A stretch of DNA of 64,000 nucleotides from an uncultured Actinomycetota bacterium (GCA_963726615.1 CAVSCX010000015.1:13822-77821); one strand, 5' to 3'; numbered from the stretch's first letter, positions 3,446 to 24,297 are shown. Numbers and translations: made by a program. Notes: generated by a model not told the origin, from the sequence alone.

Positions 3446-3457
3446 GCGACGCGGCCG

Positions 3458-4348: not shown

Positions 4349-4817
4349 GGACCCACCGTGCCGGAAGGACAGCCCGCCGGCATCGACCCGCCGGTCGCAG
4401 GCCCGGCGTGTCGGCGCCGGTCCCTCGACCGGCCGATCGACTTCGACCTGATCGAGCGCCGGTTCGTGCTGCCGCCGACGATCCGGCTCGACCGCGAGCA
4501 GGACCTCATCTGCGACGACGCCTACTACTCGCACGTCTACGGCGGCGACGCCCAGCGCCGGCTGCGCGAGCAGCACCCGCCGCGCGACGGCTGACCCCGG
4601 CGACGAGCCGGCGGGACGGCGGACTAGTACAGAAGGACTAGGCCGACCTGGTGACAGTGCGCCCCCGGTGAACCCTGTGTTGCCAGTGTGTCACCACACC
4701 CGCCGGTATCCGGCTACTTCCGCCGTTTCCTGATGGTTCGTACCCGGCTCCACCTACCCGGTCGACACCCCCCGCCTTGCCTATAGCCGGGACGAGCGGC
4801 GGCGACCTAGCGTTCCA

Positions 4818-5531
4818 GTGCGTTCCCGATGTACCTGGGGGGGAGCGCTCGGTGCGGGGGGATTCGGGTGCGTGGGGGGTGAACTGGTGGACGTCTTCGA
4901 CGCCCGGGACGAGGTCCTCTCGTCCCCCGGGCAAGCGCTGTGCCATGACCTCAAGCAGCCGGTGGCGGCGATCCTCGTCATCGCCTCGGAGGCGGCGTCG
5001 CTGCCGGCGCACGAGCTCAGCGACGGCGTGCGGTCCCGCCTGCGGCAGATCGAGGAGCAGGCCGAGGCGCTGGCCGAGGTCATCGACTCCACCCTCGGCC
5101 CCGTTCCGGACACGGACGCCGACGCACCGGCGACAACCGACCTGGACGCCACGCTGGCCGCTGTCGTGTCGCTGACCCGGCTGACCTACGGCGGGGAGGT
5201 CGCGCTGGCCGCCGACGCCGCACGGGCGCGGGTCGGGCTGGGGCACGTCCTGGTACGCCGGGTGCTCGGCAACGTCCTGGGCAACGCCACCCGCGCGGCC
5301 GGTGCCGGCGGCAGGATCTGGGTCACGTCGTCCCGCATCCCTGCACGGGTCGTGGTCGACGTCGACGACGACGGTCCCGGCTGGGGGCAGATGGCTCCCG
5401 GTCACGGGCTCGGTCTCTCCATCGTCACCGAGGTGATGGCGGCGACCGGCGGGTCGGTCACGGCGCTCGTGCTGCCGACCGGAGGCACCCGGGTGCACCT
5501 CGAGTTCCCGATCGCGACGCATGCGGGCTGA
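4818..5531 (+). CDS. sensor histidine kinase, short and apparently cytoplasmic (HisKA_3-type H-box plus HATPase_c)
   Basis: H-box LCHDLKQPVAAI, N-box LGNVLGNATRAAG, DDDGPGWG and GHGLGLSIV motifs. No TM or sensor domain. Stops upstream contain the N-terminus, so the exact start is uncertain (a GTG near 4870 is an alternative). Ends 7 nt before the response regulator. Confidence 0.75.
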   Translation: MRSRCTWGGALGAGGFGCVGGELVDVFDARDEVLSSPGQALCHDLKQPVAAILVIASEAASLPAHELSDGVRSRLRQIEEQAEALAEVIDSTLGPVPDTDADAPATTDLDATLAAVVSLTRLTYGGEVALAADAARARVGLGHVLVRRVLGNVLGNATRAAGAGGRIWVTSSRIPARVVVDVDDDGPGWGQMAPGHGLGLSIVTEVMAATGGSVTALVLPTGGTRVHLEFPIATHAG

Positions 5532-5537
5532 GGGCTG

Positions 5538-6188
5538 ATGCGGTTGGTCATCTGCGACGACCATCGGCTGCTGCTGGACACCCTCGGCGCGGCTCTGGCC
5601 GGTCGCGGGTACACCGTCGCGGCCCTGGTGACCACGGCCGCGGACGCCGTTGCGGCGGTGCGCGACAACGACCCGGACATCGCGATCGTCGACGTGCACC
5701 TGGCCGCGGGCAGCGGCCTGGCCGCCGCGGCGGAGATCGTGCGCGCGCACCCGCGGACCAAGGTGCTCATGCTCTCGGCCTCACCCGACGCGGAGTTGGT
5801 CCGCGCCGCCCTCGAGATCGGCGCGGCCGGCTTCGTCCGCAAGGACCAGAGCGTCGACGGCATCGTGCGTCGCCTCGAGCAGGTCGCGGACGGCGAGGCG
5901 GCCTTCGACCTCGTGGTGCTCCGGCGGGCGGTCTCGGCGCCGACGGCCAGCGGTGCTGCTCAGCAGCTGGCCCGGCAGCTCAGCAAACGCGAGCGTGAGG
6001 TGCTCGCGCTGCTCGTCGAGGGACGCGCCACCTCCGAGATGGCCAGCGAGCTGCACATCGCGGACAGCACCGCACGCACCCACGTCCAGAACGTGCTCGT
6101 CAAGCTCGGTGCGCACTCGCGGCTGCAGGCCGCGGCGATCGCGGCGCAGACGGGCCTGCTGGACCTCCTCGTCCAGCGCGGGCCCTAG
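5538..6188 (+). CDS. NarL/LuxR-family response regulator
   Basis: Begins MRLVICDDHRLLLDTL with DIAIVDVHL receiver motifs. C-terminal LuxR HTH region: KREREVLALLVEGRATSEMASELHIADSTARTHVQNVLVKLG. Confidence 0.9.
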   Translation: MRLVICDDHRLLLDTLGAALAGRGYTVAALVTTAADAVAAVRDNDPDIAIVDVHLAAGSGLAAAAEIVRAHPRTKVLMLSASPDAELVRAALEIGAAGFVRKDQSVDGIVRRLEQVADGEAAFDLVVLRRAVSAPTASGAAQQLARQLSKREREVLALLVEGRATSEMASELHIADSTARTHVQNVLVKLGAHSRLQAAAIAAQTGLLDLLVQRGP

Positions 6189-6265: not shown

Positions 6266-7009
6266 ATGTCAACAGCGGTTCCGGCGAACTGGCGGTGCCG
6301 TGATGGTGAACGGGTGCCAGACATCTCCGTCCTGCTCGTCGGCAGGCAGCGCACCCTGACGCAGAGCCTGGCCGAGCGGCTGGAGGTCGAGGCCGACCTG
6401 CTCGTCGTCGGCGTAGCGGAGACCCTGACGCAGGCGCGCACCTCGGTCGTCTGGCTCTGCGCCGACGTCGTGCTGCTGGACTGCGACCTGGAGACCCCGA
6501 CCAGCGAGCTGGCGGCGACACTGGGTGCCGCCGGCCAGGCCCCGCGCATCGTGCTGCTCGCCGACGCCGCCCGGGAGGCCGATGTCGCGGTGCTCGTCCG
6601 GGCCGGGGTGTCCGGCTGGGTGGACAAGGCCGACGACCTGGCCCAGCTGTTCTCGACGGTCCGGGGCGTCGCCGCCGGCGAGGTGTGGATCCCGCCGCGG
6701 CTGCTCGGAAGCGTCGTGCAGAGCTACCGCGACGGGGAGGCGGCGCGACGTCCCTGGGACGGGCTGCACACGCTGTCCGAACGCGAGCGGGAGGTCCTGT
6801 CCCGGATGGTGGCCGGACGCAACCGGGCCCAGATCGCGTCCGAGATGGTGCTGTCCGAGAGCACCGTCCGCACCCACGCGCAGAACGTCCTGCGCAAGCT
6901 GGGTGTGCACTCCTCGCTGGCCGCGGTCGCGCTGGCCCGGCGGGCCGGGCTGACCGCGCCGGGCGCCGGACCGGTGCCGGCCGGGTCAGGGGCGGGGGAG
7001 CCCGCGTGA
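6266..7009 (+). CDS. LuxR-family response regulator, atypical receiver, first gene of the downstream glycosylation operon
   Basis: VLLVGRQ...VVLLDCDLE receiver-like region. C-terminal SEREREVLSRMVAGRNRAQIASEMVLSESTVRTHAQNVLRKLG. Its stop overlaps the GTG of the next gene (GTGA). Start uncertain (ATG 6266 or GTG 6314). Confidence 0.75.
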   Translation: MSTAVPANWRCRDGERVPDISVLLVGRQRTLTQSLAERLEVEADLLVVGVAETLTQARTSVVWLCADVVLLDCDLETPTSELAATLGAAGQAPRIVLLADAAREADVAVLVRAGVSGWVDKADDLAQLFSTVRGVAAGEVWIPPRLLGSVVQSYRDGEAARRPWDGLHTLSEREREVLSRMVAGRNRAQIASEMVLSESTVRTHAQNVLRKLGVHSSLAAVALARRAGLTAPGAGPVPAGSGAGEPA

Positions 7010-9489
7010 GCACCCGGACCTTCGACTCCCCGCCCACCGAGCGGGCTGCCGGCACTCCCGCGGTGACGGTCATCGTGCCGACCCGCAACGAGGCCGGCAA
7101 CGTGGCAGTCCTGGTGGAGCGGCTGGACGCCGTGCTCCGCGGTGTTCGCGCCGAGATCCTGTTCGTCGACGACAGCACAGACGACACACCGGACCGCATC
7201 CGGTCGGTCGCGGAGCGCCCCGGACCGGAGGTCCGGCTCCTGCACCGCAGCGGCTCCGAGCGGGTCGGCGGGCTGGGCGGGGCGGTGCTGGCCGGCCTCC
7301 GGTCGGCCCGCGGCAGCTGGGCCGTCGTGATGGACGGGGACCTCCAGCACCCGCCGGAGTCGGTCCCCGAGCTGGTGCGGGCCGGTGACGACAGCGGTGC
7401 CGACCTCGTCGTCGCGAGCCGCTACCGCGGGGCCGGCAGCGCCGCCGGCCTGGCGGGCTCGACCCGTCGCCGGGTGTCCGGCGCCGGTACGCGCCTCGCC
7501 CGCGGCGCCTTCCCCCGGCGGCTGGCGGGCTGCACCGACCCGATGAGCGGGTTCTTCGCCGTGCGCCGGGGCGCGATCGACCTCGACCGGCTGCGTCCCC
7601 GCGGCTTCAAGATCCTGCTCGAGATCGTGGCCCGGTCGCCCCGGCTGCGGCTGGCCGAGGTGCCCTTCGCCTTCCAGCAGCGCCACAGCGGCGAGAGCAA
7701 GGCCTCGCTGCGCGAAGGTCTGCTGCTGGCCCGCAAGCTCGTCGGGCTGCGCGCGGCCTCGCTGCTCGGTGGCCGGGACGCGATGCCGGCCAGGGTCCTC
7801 GGCTTCGGTGCGGTCGGTGCGACCGGCATCGTGGTCAACAGCCTGGCCCTCTGGCTGCTCGTCGACGGCGCGGGTGCCGGCGTGCTCGTCGGGGCGAGTC
7901 TCGCGACCCAGGCGTCGACCCTCTGGAACTACCTGCTCACCGAGTCCCTGTTGTTCCGGGGGCCGAAGGCCCGGTCCCGCTCGACCCGGTTCGTCGGGTT
8001 CGTCGCGGTGAACAACGTCGTCCTCCTCCTCCGGCTGCCGTTGCTCGCCTGGCTGGTCCGCGGTGCGGGCGTCGACTACCTCGTCGCGAGCGTCCTCACC
8101 CTCCTGGCCGCGTTCGCCGCGCGGTTCCTGGTCTCCGACCGCTACCTCTTCCGCTCAGGAGCATCCATGTCCTCTACCCACGACCGGGTCGTCACGGCGA
8201 GCCCCGCTGGCGAGTCGGCGCGCGTTCCCGCGCCGGACTGCGCCACACCCGCGACCCCTGCACGCCGTGGCAACCCGGTGGACCTCGTCGTCGACCTTCG
8301 GGAACGGTCCGTCGTCCCCCGGCAGCGCACGCGCACCGAGGCCCTGCCGTTCCGGTACGACGTGCACGGTCTGCTCACGCTCGGGTCCGAGGTGCCGCTC
8401 GCCGAGCTGGCCGGCTTCGCCACCGAGCCTTCTGCGGAGCGCGTGGACATCGAGATCAGGCGTGGCGTGGTGGGTGGCGGCGGCTTGCGACGTCGTACCC
8501 GCGTGACGCAGTTCGCGACCCCGGCGGCTGTCACCTACCAGGAGCACCTCGGCCGCTTCGGCTCGGACTTCGCGGTCGAGATGGGCACGACGATCCACGT
8601 CGTCGTCGGGCCGTTGCTGGTCCGGTCGCCGCACGTCCTCTACACGAACGTCGTCGAGGCTCTCCTGCGGTTCGTCCTCGTCTCGCGCGGTCACGTCCTC
8701 CTGCACTCAGCGTGCCTCGAGCTCGGTGGTCGCGGCGTCCTGCTCTCGGCCCTGACCGACACCGGCAAGACCGGGACCATCCTGCGGCTGGTCCGGGAGA
8801 ACGACAGCAGGTTCCTCTCCGACGACATGACGGTGCTGCGCCCGGACGGCACGGCGCTGTCGTTCCCCAAGCCGCTCACGATCAGCCAGCACACCCTGCG
8901 AGCGGTCGAGGCGGGCGACCTGACCCCGCGTGAGTGGCGCAGGCTGCGCATCCAGAGCCGGCTGCACTCCAAGGAGGGTCGCGGCATCGGGGTACGTCTC
9001 GGCGAGATGAACATCCCGATCATGAGTCTCAACGCCGTGACCCAGGTGGTCGTCCCGCCGCCCAAGTACGACATCGAGCGTCTGGTCCCGTGCGAGCGCG
9101 CCAGCAGCGTCCAGGTCCAGGACCTGTTCGTCATCGAGCGCCGCCCCTACGAGCTCCGTGACATCGACCCGGACCTCCTGCTGGACGAGCTCATCGCGAA
9201 CACCGACGACGCCTACGGCTTCCCGCCCTTCCGCTACTTCGCGCCGGCGCTGGTGGTCGAGGGTCTGGGCTACGAGGAGCTGCGGGCGGCCGAGCGGGCG
9301 ATCCTGGCCGAGGCGCTGGTCGGCATCCGGGCCCGCCGGCTGGCGACGCCGGACTTCACCTGGGCGGACCTGATCCCCGTCCTGGCCACCGACGGAGGCA
9401 CGACGCAGACGACCACGGGGGTCATCAGGGAGCCGGAGCCGCCGCTCGGGCTGCCGCCGCTGTCAGCAGCCGCCGGGCACGGCGAGTAG
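7006..9489 (+). CDS. tri-domain fusion: GT2 polyprenyl-phosphate sugar synthase (DPM1/GtrB/ArnC-like) + GtrA-like membrane domain + HPr-kinase-C-like P-loop domain
   Basis: VTVIVPTRNEAGNV...ILFVDDSTDDTPD...VVMDGDLQHPPE...DPMSGFFAVRR (GT2). 4-TM GtrA-like segment (FGAVGATGIVVNSLALWLLV...). C-terminal LLHSACLELGGRGVLLSALTDTGKTGT resembles the HprK C-terminal P-loop. One continuous frame (no stop). An internal AGGAG-N5-ATG at 8167 lies at the GtrA/kinase boundary. Confidence 0.75.
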   Translation: MSTRTFDSPPTERAAGTPAVTVIVPTRNEAGNVAVLVERLDAVLRGVRAEILFVDDSTDDTPDRIRSVAERPGPEVRLLHRSGSERVGGLGGAVLAGLRSARGSWAVVMDGDLQHPPESVPELVRAGDDSGADLVVASRYRGAGSAAGLAGSTRRRVSGAGTRLARGAFPRRLAGCTDPMSGFFAVRRGAIDLDRLRPRGFKILLEIVARSPRLRLAEVPFAFQQRHSGESKASLREGLLLARKLVGLRAASLLGGRDAMPARVLGFGAVGATGIVVNSLALWLLVDGAGAGVLVGASLATQASTLWNYLLTESLLFRGPKARSRSTRFVGFVAVNNVVLLLRLPLLAWLVRGAGVDYLVASVLTLLAAFAARFLVSDRYLFRSGASMSSTHDRVVTASPAGESARVPAPDCATPATPARRGNPVDLVVDLRERSVVPRQRTRTEALPFRYDVHGLLTLGSEVPLAELAGFATEPSAERVDIEIRRGVVGGGGLRRRTRVTQFATPAAVTYQEHLGRFGSDFAVEMGTTIHVVVGPLLVRSPHVLYTNVVEALLRFVLVSRGHVLLHSACLELGGRGVLLSALTDTGKTGTILRLVRENDSRFLSDDMTVLRPDGTALSFPKPLTISQHTLRAVEAGDLTPREWRRLRIQSRLHSKEGRGIGVRLGEMNIPIMSLNAVTQVVVPPPKYDIERLVPCERASSVQVQDLFVIERRPYELRDIDPDLLLDELIANTDDAYGFPPFRYFAPALVVEGLGYEELRAAERAILAEALVGIRARRLATPDFTWADLIPVLATDGGTTQTTTGVIREPEPPLGLPPLSAAAGHGE

Positions 9490-9506
9490 CAGAAGAGGAC
9501 CGAGAC

Positions 9507-12500
9507 ATGAGTGCTCACCGGGCACGTCGCACCACCCCCCGTCAGCTCGGCACCGTCGTCGTCGCCGTCGCGCTGCTGTCGGCGGTCGGAGGCACCGCCC
9601 ACGCAGCGAAGGCACCGGACACGCTGATCGACTCCGGCCCGGCCGCTGCGAGCAACAGCACCAGTGCCACCGTCACCTTCCACAGCAAGCCGAAGAAGGC
9701 CACGTTCTCGTGCCAGCTCGACGCCGGGGCGGCCGTCGCCTGCGACGCGGGTGCGATCACCTACTCGGCGCTGACCGCCGGCACGCACCTCGTCACCGTG
9801 ACGGCCTCCGCCAGCGGTCTGGACGACCCGTCGCCGGCGACGTGGTCCTGGACGGTCGACCTCTCGGCGCCGACCGCGCCCACGAACCTGGCGGCGACGA
9901 CGCCGAAGCCGAAGTCCGTGGCGCTGACCTGGACCGAAGGAAGCGACGACCGGGCCGTCACCGGCAACGACGTCTACCGGGACGGTGCGAAGGTGGCGAG
10001 CGTCGGGGCGGTGACCAGCTTCACCGACGCGTCACCAGCGGCGCGTCGCACACCTATGCGGTGGTGGCGAAGGACGCCGCCGGCAACTCCTCGCCGATGA
10101 GCGCGGCGGTCGCCACCGGCGCGGCAGGCACGACCTACGACCCGCACCTGACGCGGTCGCCCTACCTGACCGACCTGGTGGGCACCGGGGTCACTGTCAA
10201 CTTCGGCACCGACCGGTCGCAGTCCGTCGCCAGCGTGAGGTACGGCGCGGTCGGCGCCGGCGGCGCATGCACGCCGACGACCACGGTCGCGGCGACCAGC
10301 ATCGTCGTAGCAGTCGGCAGCGTGAACGAGTTCCAGTGGAAGGCCCGCCTCGACCTCCCCGGCCCCGGCAGCTACTGCTACCGGCCGTTCCTGGGCGGCA
10401 CGGACCTGCTGGCCGGGAACACCTCACCGGTCGCCACGACCCAGGTCCCGCCCGGGTCGACGCAGCCGTACTCCTTCGCGGTGTTCGGCGACTGGGGCCA
10501 GGCCTACGCCGCACCGGGCAACGTCAACCAGACCAAGGTGATGTCGCAGCTCGCGGCCAGCGGGGTCCGGTTCGCGCTGACGACCGGGGACAACGGATAC
10601 CCGTCCGGGTCGCAGCTCAACTACGGCGACCTGCAGCAGAGCGGCGCCGACATCAGCGGCATCTTCGGCCCCGGCCAGTGGGGCGTGCCGGGGGCCTCGA
10701 TCCCGTTGTTCCCGGCGATCGGCAACCACGGCCTGGCCCGCAACGACGGGATCCACCCGCACTTCGGCATCTGGCCGCAGGACAACGCCGTGTCCACGTC
10801 GGGCGGCAGCTACGCGCGGACGAGCTACCCGAGCATCAACGGCAGCACGGCAGCCAGCTATCCCAGCCCGTGGTACGCCTTCGACGCCGGCAACGCGCGG
10901 TTCTACGTCCTGGACGCGGCGTGGCCGGACCTCAACGGCGGCAGCGCCGGGGTCTACGCCACCGAGGCCGCCGCGCACTGGACGCCCGGCGCGGCCCAGT
11001 ACGAGTGGCTCAAGCGCGACCTCCAGACCCACCCCTCCGGCCTGAAGTTCGCGTTCTTCCACTACCCGCTCTACTCCGACCAGCCCTCGGAGGCGTCGGA
11101 CACCAGCCTGCGCGGCGCGTCCTCGCTCGAGGGGTTGCTGGTGGCCAACGGGGTGAACATGGCGTTCCAGGGGCACGCGCACATCTACCAGCGCAGCAGC
11201 GGCCTCGGCGGCCTGGTCAGCTACCTCACCGGCGGCGGTGGCGCCAAGGCCCAGTCCACCGGCGCGTGCAGCCCCGAGGACAGGTACGCGGTCGGCTGGT
11301 CGTACACGAAGTCGCGCGGGACCAGCTGCGGCGCCGCGAAGGCGCCGAAGTCGGACGCCGAGGTCTACCACTTCCTCAAGGTGACGGTGAACGGTCGCCA
11401 GGTCACCGTCGCGCCGACCGACTCGACCGGCAAGACGTTCGACGTGCAGACCTACACCTTCGACCCGGCCCCGGAGACGTTCATCGACAGCGGCCCTCCG
11501 GACGCGGCCGCCAGCACCACCGCGACCTTCGGGTTCCGCGCGAGCAGTGGCGCGGCGACGTTCAGCTGCCGGCTCGACTCCGGCCCGGCGACGGCATGCA
11601 CCAGCCCGACGACATACACCGGGCTCGCGCAGGGACCGCACTCCTTCGCCGTCACCGCAACGGCCGGCGGCGTCAGCGACCCGGCGCCGGCGACGTGGTC
11701 CTGGACGGTCGACACCGTCGCGCCGTCGGCGCCGAGCAGCATCACCGTGACGGCCCCGTCGCCGTTCCGGGTCGACGTGAGCTGGCCGACGGCGTCGGAC
11801 AACATCGGCGTCACCGGCTATGACGTCTACCGCGACGGCGCGCTCCTCAGTGCGCTCGGTGTCGCCACGTCGTACAGCGACGGCTCGGTCCTGCCCGCGT
11901 CGACGCACGAGTACGCCGTTCGGGCCCGGGACGGCGCGGGAAACGTGTCGGCGTTCGTGTCCGCCAGCGTGACCACGCCGGCGATCGCCCCACCTGTCTT
12001 CGCGGACGGCTTCGAGTCCGGCAACCTGACCGCCTGGACCACGACGTCCGGCCTGACAGTGCAGAGCGGCACAGTGCACAGCGGGGCGTGGGCTGCCGTG
12101 GGCGCCAGCCCGACCGGAGTCACCTGGGCGAAGAAGACGCTGCCCGGCGGCCCGTACCCCGACGCCTACGCCTCCCTGGCGTTCCGGGTCAACAGCCAGG
12201 GCTCGCAGACCACGTTGCTTCGGCTGCGCAGCACGCCCACGGGCACCGCGGCCGGCTACCTCTACCTGACGCCCGCCGGCAAGCTCTCCTTCCGCAGCGA
12301 TGCGCTCGCGGCCGGGACCGTCAGCGCGGTCGTTCCCAGCACCGGGGCCTGGCACACGGTCGAGCTGCACCTCACGGTGGGCACGTCCGCGGGCGCCCTC
12401 GGATCCGTCGAGGTGTGGCTGGACGGCGCTCCCGTCGCGGCGCTGAGCAGCTCGTCGGTCGACGTCGGCTCGACCCCGGTCGGCGTGGTCCAGATCGGTG

Positions 12501-12583
12501 ACACGGCCGGCAACGGCACCGGCACCGGCTGGGACATCGGGTACGACGACGTGGCGTTCTCCACCAGCCGCCTGGGGACCTGA
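9507..12583 (+). pseudogene. secreted calcineurin-like metallophosphoesterase with fibronectin-III domains, split by a 1-nt frameshift near 10031-10034 (possible sequencing indel)
   Basis: Signal peptide MSAHRARRTTPRQLGTVVVAVALLSAVGGTAHA. The N-terminal module ...VYRDGAKVASVGAVTSFTDAS stops matching its internal duplicate ...VYRDGALLSALGVATSYSDGSVLPASTHEYAV exactly where the frame changes to ...VTSGASHTYAVVAKDAAGN. Metallophosphoesterase motifs GDWGQ, GDNGY, GNHG and GHAHIYQR follow. Confidence 0.7.
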
Positions 12584-12584
12584 G

Positions 12585-14210
12585 GTGGTCGACGAGCACC
12601 GTGCCGAGCTGGGCCGGTCGCTCGCGCTCACCGGCTCGTGGGCGCGGCTCACGGCCCTGCGGGTCCGCGCCGGCGGCGTCACCCCGGCCGCGGTGCGGGC
12701 CCGGTTGGGCCGGGTCGCTGCGCCGGTCCTGGCGGCGGGCGCCCGGCCGCTCGACGTCGGCCTGCTCGGCCTCGCGGTGCTCGTCGCCGCCGCGCTCCGC
12801 CTGGTGGACCTCGGACGGATCGGGCTCAACAGCGACGAGGCGGTCTATGCCGGGCAGGCCGCCTCGCTCGCCGGCAACCCGAGCTTCACCGACAACTTCC
12901 CGGTGATCCGTGCGCACCCGCTGCTGTTCCAGCTGGTCACGTCTCCGTTCTACCGCCACGGCATCCCGGACGTCCCCGGGCGGTACGTGGGCGCCGTGTT
13001 CGGCATCGCGACAGTCGCCCTCGTCTTCGTCGTGGGTCAGCAGCTGTACGGCCCCCGGGTGGGGTCGCTCGCCGCGCTGCTGCTCGCGGTGTCGCCGTAC
13101 CACGTGGTCATCACCCGGCAGCAGCTGCTGGACGGCCCGATGACCCTGTTTGCCACCGGAGCGCTGGCCTGCCTCGCGGCCATGGGTCGCAGCGGGCGCG
13201 GCCGTTGGCTGGTTGCGGCGGGTGGCTGCCTCGGGGCGGCGGCGCTGACCAAGGAGACGGCGGTGATCCTGGTCGCCGCGGTGTTCGCGTTCCTGTCCCT
13301 CGCCCCGCAGTTCTGGCGGCCGATGCGGCACGTGATCGGCGGGGCCGCGCTGGCGCTGGTGCTCGTCGTGGCCTACCCGGTCCTCACGAGCCTGTCCGGT
13401 GGGGCGCGCGGCGGGCAGTCCTACCTCCTCTGGCAGCTGACCCGCGGCCCCAACCACAGCTTCGGCTTCTACTTCACCGCGGTGGGCGTCTCGATGGGCC
13501 TGCTGCTCGTCGCGGCGGCCGTGGCCGGGCTGCTCGTGCTGCACCGGTCGTCGTCCTGGCGCGAGACCCTGCTCGTCTCGTGGGTCGTCGTCCCGCTGCT
13601 GTTCTTCGAGATCTGGCCGGTCAAGGGCTTCTCCTACCTGCTCCTGCTGCTCCCGGCGATCGCCGTCCTGGCGGCCAGACTGCTGGCCTGGCTCTTGGAC
13701 CGGCCCACCGGCTCGGCGACGTCCCGGACGGCCGGAGCACTCGTGACCCTGGTCGTGGTGGCCTCGCTCGCTGTCCCCGCAGCCGGCTCGGTGCTCGCGC
13801 CGAGGTCGTCCAGCCTGGCCGGAGCCGGCGGGACACCGGGCGGTCGCGAGGCCGGGCGGTGGGTCGCCGCGCACGTGCCTGACGGCGCCAGGCTGATGAC
13901 CATCGGTCCGTCGATGGCCAACATCATCCAGTACTACAGCGGGCGGGCCGCGGACGGCCTGTCGGTCAGTCCCAGCCCGGCGCACCGCAACCCGAGCTAC
14001 CTGCCGGTGCCCAACCCGGACGCCGCGGTGCGCTACGGCGACTACCAGTACCTCGTCTGGGACGCCTACTCGGCGCAACGGTCGTCGCACTTCGCCGCCA
14101 AGCAGCAGGAGCTGATCGGCAGGTACCACGGCATCGCCGTGCACACCGAGACGGCGCGGATGGACGGCCGGACGCAGCCGGTCATCGTGGTCTACGAGAT
14201 GCACCCATGA
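12585..14210 (+). CDS. GT39/PMT_2 (ArnT-like) polyprenyl-phosphate-sugar-dependent membrane glycosyltransferase
   Basis: GTG start 2 nt after the upstream stop, with GGGGA RBS. Multi-TM protein with NSDEAVYAGQAASLA loop motif and about 12 predicted helices, typical of PMT_2/ArnT GT-C enzymes. Confidence 0.75.
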   Translation: MVDEHRAELGRSLALTGSWARLTALRVRAGGVTPAAVRARLGRVAAPVLAAGARPLDVGLLGLAVLVAAALRLVDLGRIGLNSDEAVYAGQAASLAGNPSFTDNFPVIRAHPLLFQLVTSPFYRHGIPDVPGRYVGAVFGIATVALVFVVGQQLYGPRVGSLAALLLAVSPYHVVITRQQLLDGPMTLFATGALACLAAMGRSGRGRWLVAAGGCLGAAALTKETAVILVAAVFAFLSLAPQFWRPMRHVIGGAALALVLVVAYPVLTSLSGGARGGQSYLLWQLTRGPNHSFGFYFTAVGVSMGLLLVAAAVAGLLVLHRSSSWRETLLVSWVVVPLLFFEIWPVKGFSYLLLLLPAIAVLAARLLAWLLDRPTGSATSRTAGALVTLVVVASLAVPAAGSVLAPRSSSLAGAGGTPGGREAGRWVAAHVPDGARLMTIGPSMANIIQYYSGRAADGLSVSPSPAHRNPSYLPVPNPDAAVRYGDYQYLVWDAYSAQRSSHFAAKQQELIGRYHGIAVHTETARMDGRTQPVIVVYEMHP

Positions 14211-15583
14211 CCGGCCGGGTGCGGAGCGGCGGGGTCGCCGTCGGTGTCCTTGCCGTGCTCGCCGGCGTCGTGCTTGGCGGCGTCGTGGTGTCCGGCCCGG
14301 GCGCCGCGGCAGCGACCGGGCCGACAGCGTCGACCCCGATCGGCCACGTGGTGGTGATGACGCAGGAGGGCCACAGCTTCGACAGCTACCTCGGTCGTCG
14401 GCACGGTGTCGACGGCCTGCCGTCGGGCGTCTGCCTGCGGGTCGAGCAGGCGGCGGCGCCCCCGTGCCAGCGGCCGTTCGCGCTCGCCCGGACGGCCGCG
14501 CGCCCGCGGCTCGACAGCTCCGCCGCGGCCCAGGCCACCGCCGTCGCGGACGGGCGGATGGACGGGTTCGTGCTCGCCCAGGCGTCGTCGCGGAGAACGG
14601 GACGCGACGCCATGGGCTACTACCGGCCCGCCGACCTCCCGGTCCTCAACCAGCTGGCGGACCACGGCGTGGTCTTCGACCGGTGGTTCAGCGCGGTGCC
14701 CGGCGGCGGGATCGTCAACCAGCTCTTCGCCGTCTCGGGCGCCGCCGCGGCGGACGTGGCGGCGGTGCCGGAAGCAGGGTGGGCCGACCTGCCCCTGGTC
14801 TTCGACCGGCTCGAGGCGGCCGGAGTGAGCTGGAAGGTGTACGTCGAGAACTACGAGCCGGCGCTGACCGGCGCGACAGCCGGCGTCGCGGCGCGGCGCG
14901 GCGGCCAGGTGGCCCGGGTCCCGCTGCTCGCCCTGCCCAGGTACGAGCGCGACCCGGCACTCACCTCCCATGTCGCGGACCTCGGCGACTACTACCGCGA
15001 CCTGCGGTCCGACTCGCTGCCCGCCGTGTCCTGGGTGGTCACCACGTCGTCGACGGAGAAGTCACCGTCGCGCCCGGTCGTGGGGCAGGGCGCCGTGCGG
15101 GACGTCGTCAACGCCCTGGGAGAGAGCTCCGCCTGGCCGGACTCGATGTTCGTGCTCAGCTACGACTCGCCCGGCGGCTGGTACGACCACGTGGTCCCGC
15201 CCAGGACCGTCGACGGGCGCCTGGGGCTGCGCGTCCCCGCGGTCCTGGTGAGCCCGTACGCCAGGGCGGGCTCCGTCGACCACACCACGCTGGACAGCGC
15301 CGCCGTCCTGCGCTTCCTGCAGGACAACTGGAGCCTGGCCCCGCTCAGCACGCGGGTCAGCGCGTCCCCGGGCCTCGGGTCGGCCCTGCGCTTCGACCGG
15401 CCGGCCCAGGCGCCGGTGCTTGTCAGCGCCGCCCAGCCGAGACCGCCGATCGACCAGCCGAACGGCCGGGTGATCGTGGTCGGCTACCTCACCGCGATCC
15501 TGGTCGCGGCGGGGTCAGTGCTCTGGGCCGCGCGCGACCGCGCCGCGATCGTGCCCGCCGACGTCCGGCTGGACACGCCGTGA
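14207..15583 (+). CDS. phosphoesterase-family protein (phospholipase C / acid phosphatase AcpA-like, PF04185), secreted
   Basis: Overlaps the upstream gene as ATGA. Signal peptide present. HVVVMTQEGHSFDSYLG phosphoesterase signature. Confidence 0.75.
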   Translation: MTGRVRSGGVAVGVLAVLAGVVLGGVVVSGPGAAAATGPTASTPIGHVVVMTQEGHSFDSYLGRRHGVDGLPSGVCLRVEQAAAPPCQRPFALARTAARPRLDSSAAAQATAVADGRMDGFVLAQASSRRTGRDAMGYYRPADLPVLNQLADHGVVFDRWFSAVPGGGIVNQLFAVSGAAAADVAAVPEAGWADLPLVFDRLEAAGVSWKVYVENYEPALTGATAGVAARRGGQVARVPLLALPRYERDPALTSHVADLGDYYRDLRSDSLPAVSWVVTTSSTEKSPSRPVVGQGAVRDVVNALGESSAWPDSMFVLSYDSPGGWYDHVVPPRTVDGRLGLRVPAVLVSPYARAGSVDHTTLDSAAVLRFLQDNWSLAPLSTRVSASPGLGSALRFDRPAQAPVLVSAAQPRPPIDQPNGRVIVVGYLTAILVAAGSVLWAARDRAAIVPADVRLDTP

Positions 15584-17112
15584 GCCGCCGCGGGCTGCTC
15601 CGCGCCGCCGTCCTCGCCGTCCTGCTCCCGGGGCTGGCCGCAGCGGCGGTGCCGGCCACTGGCGCGGGGGCGACACCGGGACGGGTGGTCGTCACCACGA
15701 CGCCATCGCTGGCGGGGGTGCGGCTGCTGGTGGGCTCCTCCGTCGTGACGACGGGGTCCGACGGGCGGGTCGCCGCCCGCGTCTCCGACATCAACGGCAT
15801 CGCCTCCAGGGTGTCGCTGGCCGGCCGCGCCTTCGGCGCCCGCCACCGCCTGTCGCTCGCGTTCGTGGCGCCGGCGCCGCACACCGTGCGGTACGAGAGC
15901 CACCTCACCGTCGGCCTCGACGTCCGGTCGCGGGTCCGGCTGCGGGTGGACCCCGGCACCACCGGCGCGGCCCGCAAGGAGGTGCGCGCCGTCCGGCTGC
16001 ACGCGGTCACCGGCGAGACCCGGCTGGTGGACCCGCGCCGGACCACGACGCTGTGGTTGCCGTCGCGGAAAGCCCGCCGCAGCGGGTCGAGCGCACCCGG
16101 GGCGGTCACCTGGACGGTGGACAGCCTGCGCGCAGGTGCGGGCTCGACGTTCGCCACGTCGCGAGCGCCGTTCGACCCGTTCCGGTCCCGCACCTGGCGG
16201 CTCGAGCTCCGGCCGGTGAAGGGGACCGTCGTCGTCGACACGGTCCCCGCGACTCCGGGGGTCACCTTCGCGCTCGACGGCGCGACGTTCACCACCGACG
16301 GAGCCGGGCACGCGACCTCGATCGTCGCCGACCTCAACGGCGTCGACAAGCGGCTGCGGACCACCCGGGCCGAGGCCGGCGAGGTGACGGTCTCGGTCTC
16401 CCGGGTCGGCCGGCTTGCTCCGCAGGCAGCGTTCCAGCGGCACCTGGTGGTCGCCCTCGCCGTCAGCCGGCCGGTCGACCTTCGCTTCACGGACCCTGCG
16501 GGACGCAGGGTGCCGGCGAGCCGGGTCAGCGAGGTCCGCCTGGACAGCGGGGCGCACACCGTGCTGCTCGGCCCGGACCAGCTCCGCGAGGCGGTGCCGC
16601 TGCTGTCCAGCATCGGCAAGCTTGTCGACGGCGTCTGGGCGCCGCAGCCCGTCACCTACGCGGTCACCCGGGTCGGCGTCGAGGGCTCCAACGCCGTCTT
16701 CTCGGGCCGTCAGCGGATCGACCCGGCCGTGGGCCGCGACTGGGACATCTCGGTGTCGGTGTTCGACGTGCACGTGACGGTGCGCGACGCGCTGTTCGGC
16801 CACCGGCTGTCGTCCGCCGCGCAGGTGCTGCGGCCCGACGGCGTCCGCTCGGCGGTGGCGCTCGACTCCGGCCGGCCGACCGTGATCCGGTCCCTGGTCC
16901 GCGGTGAGTACACGCTGAGCACAGACTCTGCGGTGGTCGGGACGGACACCCGGATCCTGGTGAGCAAGACCTCCGACGTCGAACTGCGGGTGGTCACCCT
17001 GTTGGACGCCGCGGTGGTGACAGTGCTGCTGCTCATGGTCGCCGGCGGCCTGGTCGGCCTCGGGCTCACGCTGCGACGGCGGGCCCGCCGCGCCCGCCCT
17101 GCAGCGGCATGA
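15580..17112 (+). CDS. secreted hypothetical protein with C-terminal TM anchor
   Basis: GTG start overlaps the upstream stop (GTGA). Begins VSRRGLLRAAVLAVLLPGLAAAAVPA (signal peptide) and ends with a hydrophobic helix plus RRRARRARPAAA. Confidence 0.6.
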   Translation: MSRRGLLRAAVLAVLLPGLAAAAVPATGAGATPGRVVVTTTPSLAGVRLLVGSSVVTTGSDGRVAARVSDINGIASRVSLAGRAFGARHRLSLAFVAPAPHTVRYESHLTVGLDVRSRVRLRVDPGTTGAARKEVRAVRLHAVTGETRLVDPRRTTTLWLPSRKARRSGSSAPGAVTWTVDSLRAGAGSTFATSRAPFDPFRSRTWRLELRPVKGTVVVDTVPATPGVTFALDGATFTTDGAGHATSIVADLNGVDKRLRTTRAEAGEVTVSVSRVGRLAPQAAFQRHLVVALAVSRPVDLRFTDPAGRRVPASRVSEVRLDSGAHTVLLGPDQLREAVPLLSSIGKLVDGVWAPQPVTYAVTRVGVEGSNAVFSGRQRIDPAVGRDWDISVSVFDVHVTVRDALFGHRLSSAAQVLRPDGVRSAVALDSGRPTVIRSLVRGEYTLSTDSAVVGTDTRILVSKTSDVELRVVTLLDAAVVTVLLLMVAGGLVGLGLTLRRRARRARPAAA

Positions 17113-18347
17113 CGACACCCCGGCCGGGTCGCACCGGCACCGCCCGCCGTACTGCCCGCGCCCACCGGGTCCGCCGGCTGGTCTGCGCGCTGGCCGTCGT
17201 CCTGGCGGTCGTCGGGCTGCCGGCGGCCCAGGCAGCCGCGGCCACCGCCGCCCCGCGCGACCCGGGGGTGCCGGTGTTCGCGTACTTCTACCAGTGGTTC
17301 ACGCCGTCCTCCTGGGACCGCGCCAAGTCGGACTACCCGCTCGCGGGTCGCTACGGCAGCGACGACGCGCCCGTCCTGCGCGACCAGGTGCTGCTCGCTC
17401 GCAGCGCCGGCATCGACGGCTTCCTCACGTCGTGGAAGGACACCCCCACGCTGGACCGACGGCTGGACCTGCTGATCCGCGTCGCCAGGTCGGAGGACTT
17501 CGACCTCGGCGTGGTCTACCAGTCGCTCGACTTCGCGCGGGTGCCGCTGCCCGTCGAGACCGTGCGGCGCGACCTGCGCCGCCTCGTCGACCACTGGGGC
17601 CGCGACCTGACCTCGACGTACTACGGCAAGCCGGTGATCGTCTGGACAGGGACCGACCAGTACACGACGGCCGACGTGCACGCGGTACGTGCGGCGGTGG
17701 GCGACCGCGCGCTCCTGCTGGCGAGCTCGCACTCCGTCGAGGGGTACGAGCGGGTGGCCCGGCTCGTCGACGGCCTTGCGTACTACTGGTCCTCGGCCGA
17801 CCCGTCCTCGGCCATGACCCAGGCGAAGCTCGCGGCGATGGCGGCGGCCGTGCACCGTCACCACGGGCTGTGGCTCGCCCCCGCGGCTGCCGGCTACGAC
17901 GGCCGCACGCTCGGCGGCACCCGGGTGGTCGGACGTGCGGACGGCCAGACGCTGGTGCGCAGCCTGACCAACGCCTACGAGAGCTCGCCGGACGGCGTGG
18001 CACTGATCAGCTGGAACGAGTGGTCCGAGAACACCTACGTCGAGCCCGGGACGAAGTACGGCCAGCGCGAGCTGGTGGGGCTCAAGCGCTTCCTGCTCGC
18101 CCGCGGCGAGGAGGTGCCACCGGGGCTCACCGAGGCCGATGCCGACCGGACGGACCCGGGCGCGGCACCGTCGCCGGTGCGGGTCGGGCTGACCTCGGTC
18201 GGCGCCCGGTCGAGCTCGGGATGGACCGGGGCGCGCGCCGCCCTCACCCTGGTCCTGCTGTCGCTCGCCGCCCTGCCGGCGCTGTCGGTCCTCGGCCGCC
18301 GGCGGCACCGCCCCGGCGTGTCGGGGCGGCACCGAGCAGCGAGGTGA
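17109..18347 (+). CDS. secreted glycoside-hydrolase-like protein (GH99-like, possible endo-alpha-mannosidase fold), C-terminal anchor
   Basis: ATGA overlap with the upstream gene. Signal peptide present. FAYFYQWF...ISWNEWSENTYVEP resembles GH99/DUF4015-type hydrolases. C-terminal hydrophobic stretch. Confidence 0.55.
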   Translation: MTTPRPGRTGTARRTARAHRVRRLVCALAVVLAVVGLPAAQAAAATAAPRDPGVPVFAYFYQWFTPSSWDRAKSDYPLAGRYGSDDAPVLRDQVLLARSAGIDGFLTSWKDTPTLDRRLDLLIRVARSEDFDLGVVYQSLDFARVPLPVETVRRDLRRLVDHWGRDLTSTYYGKPVIVWTGTDQYTTADVHAVRAAVGDRALLLASSHSVEGYERVARLVDGLAYYWSSADPSSAMTQAKLAAMAAAVHRHHGLWLAPAAAGYDGRTLGGTRVVGRADGQTLVRSLTNAYESSPDGVALISWNEWSENTYVEPGTKYGQRELVGLKRFLLARGEEVPPGLTEADADRTDPGAAPSPVRVGLTSVGARSSSGWTGARAALTLVLLSLAALPALSVLGRRRHRPGVSGRHRAAR

Positions 18348-18432: not shown

Positions 18433-18714
18433 GTGGCCGACCGTGTGGACGCCCGGGTGCGGGTGTCGTGCGCCCACTGCGGCACGATCGAGGTGCCGGC
18501 GGCCGAGGTGCGCCTGGTGATGGGCCGACCGGAGACTGCCGGCGACCCACCGCGCGACGAGGTCGAGTTCCGCTGCGGCACCTGCGGGCTCGGCGGTTCG
18601 ACCCGCGTGGACGAGCGGGCCGCCCGGCTCGTGGCCCGGGCGGGTGCCCCGGTAGCGGGGCCACCGGCGCCCCGGGCGGCGCCGCCCGCGCGCGGCCGAC
18701 GCCGGCCTCGCTGA
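18433..18714 (+). CDS. small Cys4 zinc-ribbon protein
   Basis: VRVSCAHCGTIEVPAAEVRLVMGRPE...EVEFRCGTCGLGGSTRVDE. Same CxxC-(27-30)-CxxC architecture and flanking pattern as the 25153-25509 product. Confidence 0.4.
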   Translation: MADRVDARVRVSCAHCGTIEVPAAEVRLVMGRPETAGDPPRDEVEFRCGTCGLGGSTRVDERAARLVARAGAPVAGPPAPRAAPPARGRRRPR

Positions 18715-18871: not shown

Positions 18872-19885
18872 ATGGCATCGACACGACCCCGCGCCGGGGT
18901 GACCGCGCTGCCGGCTGCGCGCACGACAGCCGCGCCGGCCGAGCCGACGCCGCCGTCACCCGTCGGGGTCGGCGGCGACCGGCCGGACCGGCCCGACAGG
19001 TTGGTGGTCGGGAAGGAGGAGCTGACGGCCCCGGAGCTGGTGCAGCGCTACCTCGACACCCAGGAGGAGCTGCGGTCGCTGCGCAAGCGAGCACGTGACG
19101 CGCTGCGCACCCAGCGCGCAGAGCTGCAGCTGCGACCGTGGCAGGTCGAGCTGCTGAAGATGCAGCGCCACCTCGAGGCGACCAGGCAGCGCATGATCGT
19201 GGTCTTCGAGGGCCGTGACGCCGCCGGCAAGGGCGGCACGATCCGGCGGGTCACCCGGTACATGAACGAGAAGCACTACCGGGTCGTCGCCCTGGCCAAG
19301 CCGACCGACGAGCAGCGCTCTCAGTGGTACTTCCAGCGCTACGTGGCGCAGTTCCCGACCGGCGGGGAGGTCGTGCTCTTCGACCGATCCTGGTACAACC
19401 GCGCCATGGTCGAGCCGGTGTTCGGCTTCTGCACCGACGAGGAGTACGACAACTTCGTCCACGGCGTGACCGGCTTCGAGAAGGACCTGGTGCGCCAGGG
19501 GACGATCCTGGTGAAGCTCTACTTCAGCGTCACCAAGGCCGAGCAGGCCCGGCGGTTCGCCCGCCGCCGCGACGACCCCTTGCGGGAGTGGAAGCTCAGC
19601 GAGGTCGACATGCAGGCACAGGACCGGTGGGACGACTTCACCGACCGGAAGTACCAGATGCTGCGCCGCACCAGCACGGTCGCCGCGCCCTGGACGATCG
19701 TCCGGTCCGGCGACAAGCAGCGCGCGCGGCTCAACGCGATGAAGTCCATCCTCAACGCCGTCGACTACGACGACCGCGACACGTCGCTCGACTGGGTGCC
19801 GGACCCCAAGGTCGTGGTGTCCGGCCCGGAGGAGATCAGCCTGATGGAGGCCGAGCGGATCCGGAAGGGACGGTTCACCGGATGA
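18872..19885 (+). CDS. ppk2: polyphosphate kinase 2 (PPK2) family protein
   Basis: GGGAGGA RBS. MIVVFEGRDAAGKGGTIRRV Walker A, YFQRYVAQFPTGGEVVLFDRSWYNRA and lid motifs. Confidence 0.9.
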   Translation: MASTRPRAGVTALPAARTTAAPAEPTPPSPVGVGGDRPDRPDRLVVGKEELTAPELVQRYLDTQEELRSLRKRARDALRTQRAELQLRPWQVELLKMQRHLEATRQRMIVVFEGRDAAGKGGTIRRVTRYMNEKHYRVVALAKPTDEQRSQWYFQRYVAQFPTGGEVVLFDRSWYNRAMVEPVFGFCTDEEYDNFVHGVTGFEKDLVRQGTILVKLYFSVTKAEQARRFARRRDDPLREWKLSEVDMQAQDRWDDFTDRKYQMLRRTSTVAAPWTIVRSGDKQRARLNAMKSILNAVDYDDRDTSLDWVPDPKVVVSGPEEISLMEAERIRKGRFTG

Positions 19886-20694
19886 CGGCGCGTGCGGCCG
19901 AGCCGACCGTGCCAGGGACGGAGCCGATGAGCGCGGCGGCGTACGAGCGGCACCTCGCGAAGCTGCAGCGGGAGCTGGTGAAGCTGCAGGAGTGGGTCGT
20001 GCACGAGGGCCTGCGGGTCTGCGTGCTCTTCGAGGGCCGTGACGCTGCCGGCAAGGGCGGCACGATCAAGCGCATCGTCGACCGGACCAATCCGCGTGTC
20101 GTCCGGGTGGTGGCCCTCGCCAAGCCGGACGAGCGCGAGCGCACGCAGTGGTACTTCCAGCGCTACGTCGCCCAGCTGCCCGCGGCCGGTGAGGTCGTGC
20201 TGTTCGACCGCAGCTGGTACAACCGGGCCGGCGTCGAGCACGTGATGGGCTTCTGCTCCGATGCGGAGTACGAGGAGTTCCTGCGGTCGGCACCCGGTCT
20301 GGAGGCCATGCTCATCCGGTCCGGCATCATCCTCGTCAAGTACTGGTTCTCCGTGAGCGACGAGGAGCAGGAACGCCGATTCCAGGAGCGGATCCGGAAC
20401 CCGCGCAAGCGGTGGAAGCTCAGTGAGATGGACCTGCAGTCCCGGGCCCGCTGGGTCGACTACTCCCGGGCCAAGGACCGCATGTTCGAGCTCACCGACA
20501 CCAAGCTGTCGCCGTGGTGGGTGGTGGACGCCGACGACAAGCGCAGAGCCCGGCTCAACTGCATCCACCACCTGCTCTCGCAGGTGCCCTACCAGGACTG
20601 CACGTCGACGCCGCTCGTCCTCCCTCCCCGGCAGGCCGACGACTACGTCCGGCCGCCGCAGACCGAGCTGACGGCTGTGCCCGAGCGCTACTAG
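19882..20694 (+). CDS. ppk2: polyphosphate kinase 2 (PPK2) family protein, tandem paralogue
   Basis: ATGA overlap with the first PPK2. VCVLFEGRDAAGKGGTIKRI and YFQRYVAQLPAAGEVVLFDRSWYNRA. Confidence 0.9.
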   Translation: MTARAAEPTVPGTEPMSAAAYERHLAKLQRELVKLQEWVVHEGLRVCVLFEGRDAAGKGGTIKRIVDRTNPRVVRVVALAKPDERERTQWYFQRYVAQLPAAGEVVLFDRSWYNRAGVEHVMGFCSDAEYEEFLRSAPGLEAMLIRSGIILVKYWFSVSDEEQERRFQERIRNPRKRWKLSEMDLQSRARWVDYSRAKDRMFELTDTKLSPWWVVDADDKRRARLNCIHHLLSQVPYQDCTSTPLVLPPRQADDYVRPPQTELTAVPERY

Positions 20695-20805
20695 GGCCGG
20701 GTCGGGTCCCCGCTCGGAGTGGCGGCGCGTCACCAGTCCGCTCGCCCGCCGGGCCCGCTGGTCCGATCATGCTCGAGGGGCTCGCACCCGGCGACTCGGG
20801 GGGCG

Positions 20806-21455: not shown

Positions 21456-21470
21456 CCGGGTGAGCCGCTC

Positions 21471-24189: not shown

Positions 24190-24297
24190 GGCCCCACGCC
24201 TCGGCGCGGGAGCGCCCCGCCGTTCGGGTCCGGGGCGCCGGGTCGTGGGATCCCCTCGCCGTTCGTCGGCTGGCTGGGAATCGCTGCCGGCTTCGGC

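Follow-up and report, generated by a model that had tools for sequence, protein, structure and literature searches.

A conserved gene cassette of soil Actinomycetota and Chloroflexota joins a polyprenyl-phosphate-sugar synthase to a kinase-like domain and putatively serves envelope glycosylation

Lipid-linked sugar donors supply cell-envelope assembly in all domains of life, and in bacteria the priming, flipping and recycling of the carrier lipid are still poorly resolved. The closest described relatives of the locus analyzed here are the three-component Gtr systems, which include phage-encoded O-antigen glucosylation in Shigella and Salmonella, CsbB/GtcA/YfhO in Firmicutes, PpgS-Rv3632-Rv3779 in mycobacteria, and the pentofuranose systems (PMC11127046). 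These systems co-encode a GT2 glycosyltransferase that loads polyprenyl phosphate, a GtrA-family element with four transmembrane (TM) helices, and a GT-C glycosyltransferase that works on the outer face of the membrane. We studied a 64,000-nucleotide stretch of DNA from an uncultured Actinomycetota bacterium (GCA_963726615.1 CAVSCX010000015.1:13822-77821; G+C content about 73 %), which we refer to as the window. An earlier sequence-only reading had singled out seven plus-strand genes between positions 6266 and 18347 as a regulated locus for surface glycosylation, headed by a response regulator. Here we describe six of these genes as a conserved cassette (Table 1), the first of which encodes a synthase fused to a kinase-like domain.

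All three sequence features that define the Gtr systems are found in this cassette. However, its GT2 and GtrA domains form a single polypeptide resembling dolichol-phosphate-mannose synthase (DPMS), and this chain carries an extra P-loop domain of the fold shared by phosphoenolpyruvate carboxykinase (PEPCK) and HPr kinase/phosphorylase (HprK). The cassette also brings a phospholipase C (PLC)/AcpA-like protein, a stalk protein, a GH99/71-like enzyme and usually a phosphoesterase resembling purple acid phosphatase (PAP), while no target glycan locus adjoins it. The type III DPMS of Pyrococcus furiosus (5mlz) likewise joins a GT2 domain to a following 4-TM GtrA/DPMS domain within a single chain, but this archaeal enzyme, which feeds both N- and O-glycosylation, ends with the TM domain and lacks a kinase-like C-terminal domain. 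Actinobacterial Ppm1/Pmt (GT2 plus GT39) resembles the cassette in using a polyprenyl-P-mannose donor, which is a predicted one in our case, for a PMT-like GT-C with a DE motif in the first outer loop. Ppm1 nevertheless lacks the GtrA and kinase domains, Pmt carries a PMT_4TMC domain, and the Ppm1/Pmt genes are not clustered with phosphoesterases or glycoside hydrolases.

The extent of the conserved unit was judged from a sample of one genome per GTDB species, which returned 80 loci that we annotated by tblastn with the window proteins. The three-domain fusion occurs in 25 of them, 23 of which include enough downstream DNA to judge. A PMT_2 gene lies near the fusion in 21 of these 23 by tblastn, and a divergent PMT_2 in locus L018 brings the count to 22; L015 is the sole informative fusion locus without one, and L037 carries a variant cassette. 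In most of the 21 loci, genes for the PLC-like, stalk and GH99-like proteins are present as well and keep their order. The position of the metallophosphoesterase gene varies: it follows the fusion in some loci and the GH99-like gene in others, and it is missing from one third of the loci. The roughly 55 loci that have only a two-domain GT2-GtrA paralogue, such as those of Streptomyces and Microbacterium, have no adjacent cassette genes at all. In nearly all informative genomes the three-domain fusion is followed by this set of genes, none of which sits beside the two-domain paralogues, and the arrangement is far beyond chance. Synteny had been named beforehand as a test, and the order proved to be kept across phyla, with carriers in Actinomycetota, Chloroflexota and Dormibacterota, including Jatrophihabitans, Nocardioidaceae, Acidimicrobiia and Chloroflexia. 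These are abundant soil lineages, along with a few cultured strains, namely Oryzobacter telluris 24SJ04S-52 (L021), Lentzea sp. NPDC005914 (L011), Leekyejoonella antrihumi and Flexivirga endophytica.

From this comparison, the conserved unit is six genes, encoding the fusion, the metallophosphoesterase, the GT-C, the PLC-like protein, a beta-sandwich stalk and the GH99/71-like enzyme. The response regulator is excluded. Its triad with a histidine kinase and a second response regulator is found ahead of the cassette in close relatives alone (L001, L083 and the P0003 contig) and is absent at distant loci, and we therefore dropped the view of this regulator as head of a conserved operon. Clustering of the open reading frames (ORFs) at the 21 syntenic loci yielded no further conserved partner, and no genes for GDP-mannose, a polyprenyl synthase or a transporter. 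In two loci (L003 and L013), PMT_2 and the PLC-like protein are encoded by a single ORF.

The N-terminal part of the 827-residue fusion protein was matched by Pfam to Glycos_transf_2 (PF00535; 3.8e-21, residues 21-240) and GtrA_DPMS_TM (PF04138; 1.4e-15, residues 267-382), so that the GtrA-family element is part of the GT2 chain here and not a separate small protein. Residues 19-377 align with residues 24-367 of the P. furiosus Dol-P-Man synthase chain 5mlz at an E-value of 3e-46, as compared to 6e-11 for ArnC and 3.6e-6 for GtrB over the same region. The VDDS and MDGDLQHP motifs are invariant in fusion orthologues. Given the end-to-end alignment with 5mlz, we conclude that, by homology, the GT2 and "GtrA" domains together are a complete polyprenyl-phosphate-hexose synthase of the archaeal DPMS type, with mannose as the probable hexose. 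More than 1400 homologues of the fusion were found, nearly all of them full-length and from soil Actinomycetota. Seven orthologues (P0070, P0073, P0075, P0077, P0079, P0087 and P0101) carry an N-terminal cupin/mannose-6-phosphate-isomerase-type domain (PF07883, PF01050), making them four-domain proteins of about 920 residues, and the Chloroflexota and Dormibacterota loci have an insertion of about 300 residues in the GT2-GtrA part.

Pfam returned no match over its cut-off for residues ~425-800 of the fusion, yet an alignment of orthologues shows this to be the most conserved part of the protein. Its invariant motifs are SPHVLYTN, LLHSACL, TDTGKTGT, FLSDDMT, PKPxTISxHTL and NTDDAYxFPPFR. Within these, the series H-x-A-C...G-x-G...T-D-T-G-K-T-G-T...F-L-S-D-D is what we take to be the His/Walker-A/Asp-Asp core of HprK/P and PEPCK. 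Matches to profile hidden Markov models (HMMs) were weak, with 5.3e-5 for HprK-related kinase A and 0.015 for Hpr_kinase_C, and precomputed Pfam matches to ScmC on fusion orthologues were weak as well. An AlphaFold2 model built from a 71-sequence alignment has a mean predicted local distance difference test (pLDDT) score of 87. The modeled domain has the two-subdomain fold of PEPCK, including a PEPCK-like N-terminal beta subdomain, at 8-10 % identity, as well as the fold of the HprK C-terminal P-loop domain with its core motif (His, GxGK[ST], DD). Together, motifs and model indicate that the C-terminal domain is a PEPCK/HprK-fold P-loop domain in which the Walker-A Lys, the His and the Asp-Asp motifs are all intact. 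We dropped the strict name "HPr kinase", as the HMM scores fall far under the cut-off and the structure matches PEPCK better. Because four TM helices precede it, the domain is predicted to be cytoplasmic. The sequence-only reading had described the protein as a GT2 plus a GtrA flippase domain; both families were borne out by Pfam, but this third domain of about 400 residues, which defines the family, had been overlooked.

This kinase-like domain, welded to a sugar-lipid synthase, is the most distinctive and an unstudied feature of the cassette. Other members of the PEP-carboxykinase-like P-loop superfamily include HPr kinase/phosphorylase, PEPCK, the HprK-related kinases A and B, and ScmC of peptide-maturation cassettes, and the domain differs from these by its tether to a membrane glycosyltransferase. 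No gene for an HPr-like or peptide substrate was seen in the vicinity, in loci where no search aimed at HPr or ptsH was made. An exhaustive search with the domain returned 1117 sequence clusters at E <= 1e-3. Their architectures, with the domain written as Kin, include GT2-GtrA-Kin-PMT_2, GtrA-Kin-PMT_2, Kin-PMT_2, GtrA-Kin, Kin-GtrA and GT2-Kin-GtrA, and certain genomes encode the kinase-like part in an ORF of its own. Such an ORF follows a GT2-GtrA gene in L021 (9995-12429, Oryzobacter telluris), L008, L025 and L026, through either a real split or a sequencing frameshift. As its fusions with synthase, GtrA domain and GT-C occur in every order, we see in the kinase-like domain a concrete candidate for a missing step of the carrier-lipid cycle.

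The GT-C is predicted from a TM scan to have about 11 TM helices and an extracytoplasmic C-terminal domain. Besides PMT_2, it matches PMT (PF02366) at 9.6e-10, with 38.9 bits against a cut-off of 22.7. An NSDE motif after TM1 is invariant, and its D84 and E85 constitute the DE motif. A profile of 32 orthologues found yeast Pmt1 (6p25, 9e-8) and Pmt4, and did not match ArnT. No Pfam match to PMT_4TMC was obtained on this protein at E-values up to 0.01. For this reason the earlier "GT39/PMT_2" assignment holds for PMT_2, with Pmt1 as best solved relative, while GT39 is not established and was dropped as a strict label.

Three further cassette proteins, the PLC-like, stalk and GH99-like products, each have an N- and a C-terminal hydrophobic segment in the TM scan, from which we predict that they are tethered on the outer face of the membrane; all accessory proteins of the cassette are predicted to lie outside the membrane. 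The PLC-like protein belongs to PF04185 (200.8 bits) and has 8k3g, 2d1g and 8hav as relatives in the PDB. Where solved PLCs read GPT-NPNR at the nucleophile site, the window protein reads GGG-IVNQ, with Gly in the nucleophile position, and it reads EGHSFD for ENRSFD, such that an Asn metal ligand is replaced by Gly. With Gly at both positions, the window protein is probably no conventional hydrolase, and the earlier designation as a phospholipase-C-type phosphoesterase stands for the family but not for the catalytic residues. Of 18 cassette orthologues at other loci, 14 retain the Ser/Thr nucleophile. Going by the aligned residues, catalytic constraint seems to have been relaxed or altered inside a single orthologous group. 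The "EN" metal-ligand pair is highly variable among the orthologues.

The stalk protein, which had been noted earlier as a secreted protein without a recognizable family, indeed belongs to none; it has 59 homologues, all unnamed. Its structure model (pLDDT 88) shows a duplicated set of transthyretin/CnaB-like beta-sandwiches followed by a TM helix, and on this model it is probably a stalk or scaffold. The last gene of the cassette encodes a protein that scores above the cut-off for two glycoside hydrolase (GH) families, with 41.1 bits (1.2e-10; cut-off 34) for GH71 and 37.0 bits (2.9e-9; cut-off 33) for GH99. It aligns with the Bacteroides enzymes BtGH99 (4acz, 1.4e-6) and BxGH99, where its SWNEWSENTYVEP is placed against the catalytic SFNEWHEGTQIEP and both catalytic Glu residues are kept; WNExxE is invariant in 17/17 aligned GH99-like sequences, including that of the window. 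The protein thus resembles the GH99 endo-alpha-1,2-mannosidases/mannanases (BtGH99, BxGH99) and the GH71 alpha-1,3-glucanases, which share the (beta/alpha)8 clan, in its aligned YP..G.Y.S.D and NEWxE motifs. It differs in its low identity (E 1e-6), in being anchored at both ends, and in being a partner within a biosynthetic cluster rather than a nutrient-acquisition enzyme. The GH99-like hydrolase of the sequence-only reading is thereby upheld at the level of the clan; since GH71 scores higher, we do not file it strictly as GH99.

For the metallophosphoesterase, a signal peptide, two Ig/FN3 modules (1k85, 8.6e-12) and a C-terminal lectin-like domain were recognized. Structure matches to the PAPs 4dhl and 1kbp were at about 7e-5, and Pfam Metallophos scored slightly under its cut-off. 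All five PAP metal-ligand motifs (GDWG, GDxxY, GNHG, HxP and GHAH) are present and are conserved in 12-13 orthologues. The description as a secreted FN3 metallophosphoesterase is consistent with these matches, but the gene is frameshifted in the window. It is FRAMESHIFTED there, with one T missing at 10031/10032 as compared to L001, a metagenome contig (ENA ERZ25039476 contig_5952) that is 99.86 % identical over 21.4 kb. In the window, frame 0 meets a stop at 10100 and the remainder of the gene continues in another frame from ~10033. L001 has one base more at this site (ACGCTGTCACC vs ACGCGTCACC), and its gene is intact (L001:5300-8377, 1025 residues). The two sequences differ by 27 substitutions and three single-base indels, the other two at 24254 and 24900; in light of these differences, the frameshift is either a strain-level mutation or an assembly error.

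What could such a cassette make? On balance, we judge it reasonably probable that the locus is a conserved, uncharacterized six-gene elaboration of three-component lipid-linked glycosylation, which probably builds and trims a phosphate-bearing alpha-mannose glycoconjugate of the envelope. In the mechanism we propose from homology and models, the fusion synthase would convert GDP-mannose to polyprenyl-P-mannose in the cytoplasm, and this donor would reach the outer leaflet, where the GT-C would move mannose onto an acceptor in the envelope, which could be a protein or else a glycopolymer or lipoglycan. The GH99-like enzyme would cut, trim or size the alpha-linked product, and the phosphoesterases would act on phosphate of the product or of its lipid anchor. 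Mannose is suggested by four independent hints: DPMS is by far the best relative of the GT2, Pmt1 is the best relative of the GT-C, the GH99 signature is present, and some orthologues of the fusion carry N-terminal cupin/MannoseP_isomer domains. By these homologies, the lipid-linked sugar is probably mannose.

We hypothesize that the kinase-like domain phosphorylates something in the lipid-sugar cycle, given its obligatory coupling to synthase, GtrA and GT-C; candidates for this component are the polyprenol carrier and the sugar head-group. In a review of actinobacterial mannosylation, a polyprenol kinase step, described generically, comes directly before the GT2 step, and the flippase is treated as hypothetical (PMC12757957). 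With the kinase placed there, the carrier lipid is a natural candidate substrate and the sugar head-group the alternative. If the proposed pathway is correct, the cassette would mark an envelope glycoconjugate of soil lineages, probably with alpha-mannose and phosphate. The sequence-only view of a regulated surface-glycosylation locus is in keeping with the joint presence of synthase, GtrA, GT-C, outer phosphoesterases and GH99-like enzyme under local two-component control, but the regulatory half of it does not extend beyond close relatives.

Several observations weigh against this proposal. Our literature searches found no paper describing the cassette. The kinase-like domain scores 15.3 bits for Hpr_kinase_C against a cut-off of 33.3, and 15.7 for TIGR00679 against 240. 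As GH71, an alpha-1,3-glucanase family, scores slightly above GH99 and the sugar is assigned by homology, an alpha-glucan is a possible product. The nucleophile of the PLC-like protein is lost in the window, in the close relative L083, and in L009 and L012, so phosphoester chemistry by this component is not universal. Finally, we infer co-transcription of the cassette from the gene overlaps alone.

The evidence for mannose and for a PMT-like GT-C would also fit a dedicated system for protein O-mannosylation, in which the GT-C modifies Ser/Thr residues on secreted proteins, with the FN3 phosphoesterase and stalk of the cassette itself as possible targets, and the GH99-like enzyme edits the glycans. 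Among solved structures, yeast Pmt1 is the best match to the GT-C, whose DE motif is invariant; the synthase is DPMS-like, and actinobacterial Ppm1/Pmt provides a precedent (PMC12757957, PMC5882110). The similarity to Pmt1, however, spans only ~105 residues, PMT_4TMC was not detected in the GT-C by Pfam, and the names given to orthologues by NCBI are mixed between ArnT family and GT39. Known bacterial Pmt systems need neither a kinase domain nor a PLC-like protein, a phosphatase or an endo-glycanase, and an endo-acting GH suggests a polymer over short O-mannosyl chains. We regard protein O-mannosylation as an unlikely account of the locus. The two phosphoesterase families raise a different idea, namely that under phosphate stress the PLC-like and PAP-like proteins strip phospholipids or teichoic-acid-type polymers, which the GT-C then mannosylates into phosphorus-free surrogates, in an extracytoplasmic counterpart of lipid remodelling by PlcP-Agt. 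From the PMT_2-PLC fusion, the two parts may act one after the other on the same substrate, a pair of PPK2 polyphosphate kinase genes adjoins the cassette in the window and lies on its other side in L083, and a two-component system precedes the locus. Yet the PPK2 association is confined to close relatives, the regulators are of the NarL/LuxR and not the PhoPR type, the PLC-like protein has lost its nucleophile here, and one third of the loci have no metallophosphoesterase. With no role left for the kinase-like domain or the GH99-like enzyme, we find a module for phosphate economy distinctly improbable.

That the genes are chance neighbors, or share regulation while serving unrelated functions (a general Ppm1-like synthase, scavenging phosphatases and a polysaccharide-degrading hydrolase), could be argued from how common each family is by itself in soil Actinomycetota, and from the regulator genes not being conserved with the cassette. 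Against this stand a gene order kept across three phyla, the absence of cassette genes beside two-domain paralogues, and multiple independent fusions that join GT2, GtrA, Kin, PMT_2 and PLC-like parts. The synteny and fusion data effectively refute this explanation, and we give it almost no weight. More speculatively, the kinase-like domain might be the missing soluble-type kinase for polyprenol or lipid-linked sugar within a self-contained carrier-lipid cycle, where the PLC-like protein, taken to have been active ancestrally, cleaves or transfers the sugar-1-phosphate head-group of polyprenyl-P-mannose in the manner of LtaS and the polyprenol is re-phosphorylated before the GT2 reloads it. 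The products of this speculative cycle would be a mannose-phosphate polymer, phosphomannan or teichoic-like, and free polyprenol. The logic is that of LtaS/DgkB and of head-group transfer by ArnT/EptA, where an outer enzyme of the alkaline-phosphatase superfamily is matched with a cytoplasmic kinase able to recycle the lipid by-product, and the parallel is no more than an analogy. PF04185 is distinct from the sulfatase/LtaS family and is not known to have transferase activity. The cycle fits the exclusive co-occurrence of the kinase domain with the PLC-like gene; that the window lineage has lost the nucleophile weakens it and, in the window protein, is a further difference from LtaS. We consider it a long shot. 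If true, it would represent a new route to phosphodiester-linked envelope glycopolymers in Actinomycetota and Chloroflexota that lack LtaS, together with a new family of kinases that have polyprenyl lipids as substrates.

Gene calls were made from an ORF list combined with a frame plot of G+C at the third codon position (GC3). Both support the close packing of the seven plus-strand genes, from the atypical regulator to the GH99-like gene, that had been reported from sequence. Four junctions, at 7006, 14207, 15580 and 17109, are 4-nt overlaps (GTGA or ATGA), and the other two are gaps of 17 nt before 9507 and 1 nt before 12585. Profile searches against Pfam matched every family named in the sequence-only reading, GT2 and GT-C families included. 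A promoter and terminator scan of the region was uninformative, and an Rfam scan of it returned nothing useful.

Table 1. Coordinates and assignments of the cassette genes and adjoining features in the window. Assignments are predictions; the fusion protein (7006-9489) is split into its two parts.
Feature	Position	Strand	Evidence
Small soluble histidine kinase	4818-5531	+	HATPase_c 1.9e-13, HisKA weak (Pfam)
Canonical NarL/LuxR-type response regulator	5538-6188	+	Response_reg 1.1e-19, GerE 3e-16
Atypical receiver plus GerE helix-turn-helix regulator	6266-7009	+	GerE 3.3e-17; GTGA overlap with next gene
DPMS-type polyprenyl-phosphate-hexose synthase (GT2 plus 4-TM GtrA/DPMS), N-terminal part of 827-residue fusion	7006-8229	+	Pfam, 5mlz
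Cytoplasmic PEPCK/HprK-fold P-loop phosphotransferase-like domain, C-terminal part of 827-residue fusion	8230-9489	+	
Secreted PAP-like metallophosphoesterase, two Ig/FN3 modules, C-terminal lectin-like domain	9507-12583	+	PAP and FN3 structure matches
GT-C glycosyltransferase, PMT_2 (PMT/ArnT-like) type	12585-14210	+	PMT_2 1.4e-17
Membrane-tethered extracytoplasmic PLC/AcpA-family (alkaline-phosphatase superfamily) protein	14207-15583	+	PF04185 4.6e-59
Unannotated family: signal/anchor, tandem transthyretin/CnaB-like beta-sandwiches, C-terminal TM anchor	15580-17112	+	Structure model
Membrane-tethered extracytoplasmic GH99/GH71-clan (beta/alpha)8 endo-alpha-glycanase-like enzyme	17109-18347	+	GH71, GH99 HMMs
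Small CxxC...CxxC zinc-ribbon-like protein, 93 residues, candidate accessory/regulatory gene	18433-18714	+	Homologues beside cassette

Upstream of the cassette, Pfam confirmed the histidine kinase and response regulator pair that had been read directly ahead of the locus (4818-6188). The receiver of this first regulator has the DD, D, S and K residues visible in its translation. The LuxR-type regulator that follows owes its assignment to the GerE helix-turn-helix domain; its receiver is below the Pfam cut-off (Response_reg 24.7 bits vs 30.2) and lacks the acidic Asp pair, which is replaced by Gly-Arg ("GR" in VLLVGRQ), while the Asp (LLDCD) and Lys (VDKAD) are present. Judging by these residues, the product is an atypical response regulator. 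Its gene is translationally coupled to the fusion gene by the GTGA overlap. On the minus strand further upstream are a GH13 alpha-amylase-family gene (1760-3445, 5.2e-77) and a 372-residue ORF with no Pfam match (3458-4576). A plus-strand ORF in the mechanical ORF list (1928-4594) was rejected as an antisense artefact by codon-position GC.

Downstream, a gap of 524 nt separates the end of the GH99-like gene from the two adjacent PPK2 genes (18872-19885, 2.1e-87, and 19882-20694, 1.6e-105). In the related contig L083 the PPK2 pair is found upstream of the histidine kinase and response regulator genes. The pair suggests a lineage-specific link to phosphate/polyphosphate metabolism. The small ORF at 18433-18714 has two CxxC pairs and is 73 % identical to the ORF at the same position in L083; homologues adjoin the cassette in L003, L004, L005 and L006, where position and orientation vary, and the product may be an accessory or regulatory partner. 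Beyond the PPK2 pair (20700-22208), the annotation of L001 gives an Oxidored_molyb gene, an FAD/NAD-binding reductase gene and a DUF6510 gene, which appear to be unrelated to the cassette.

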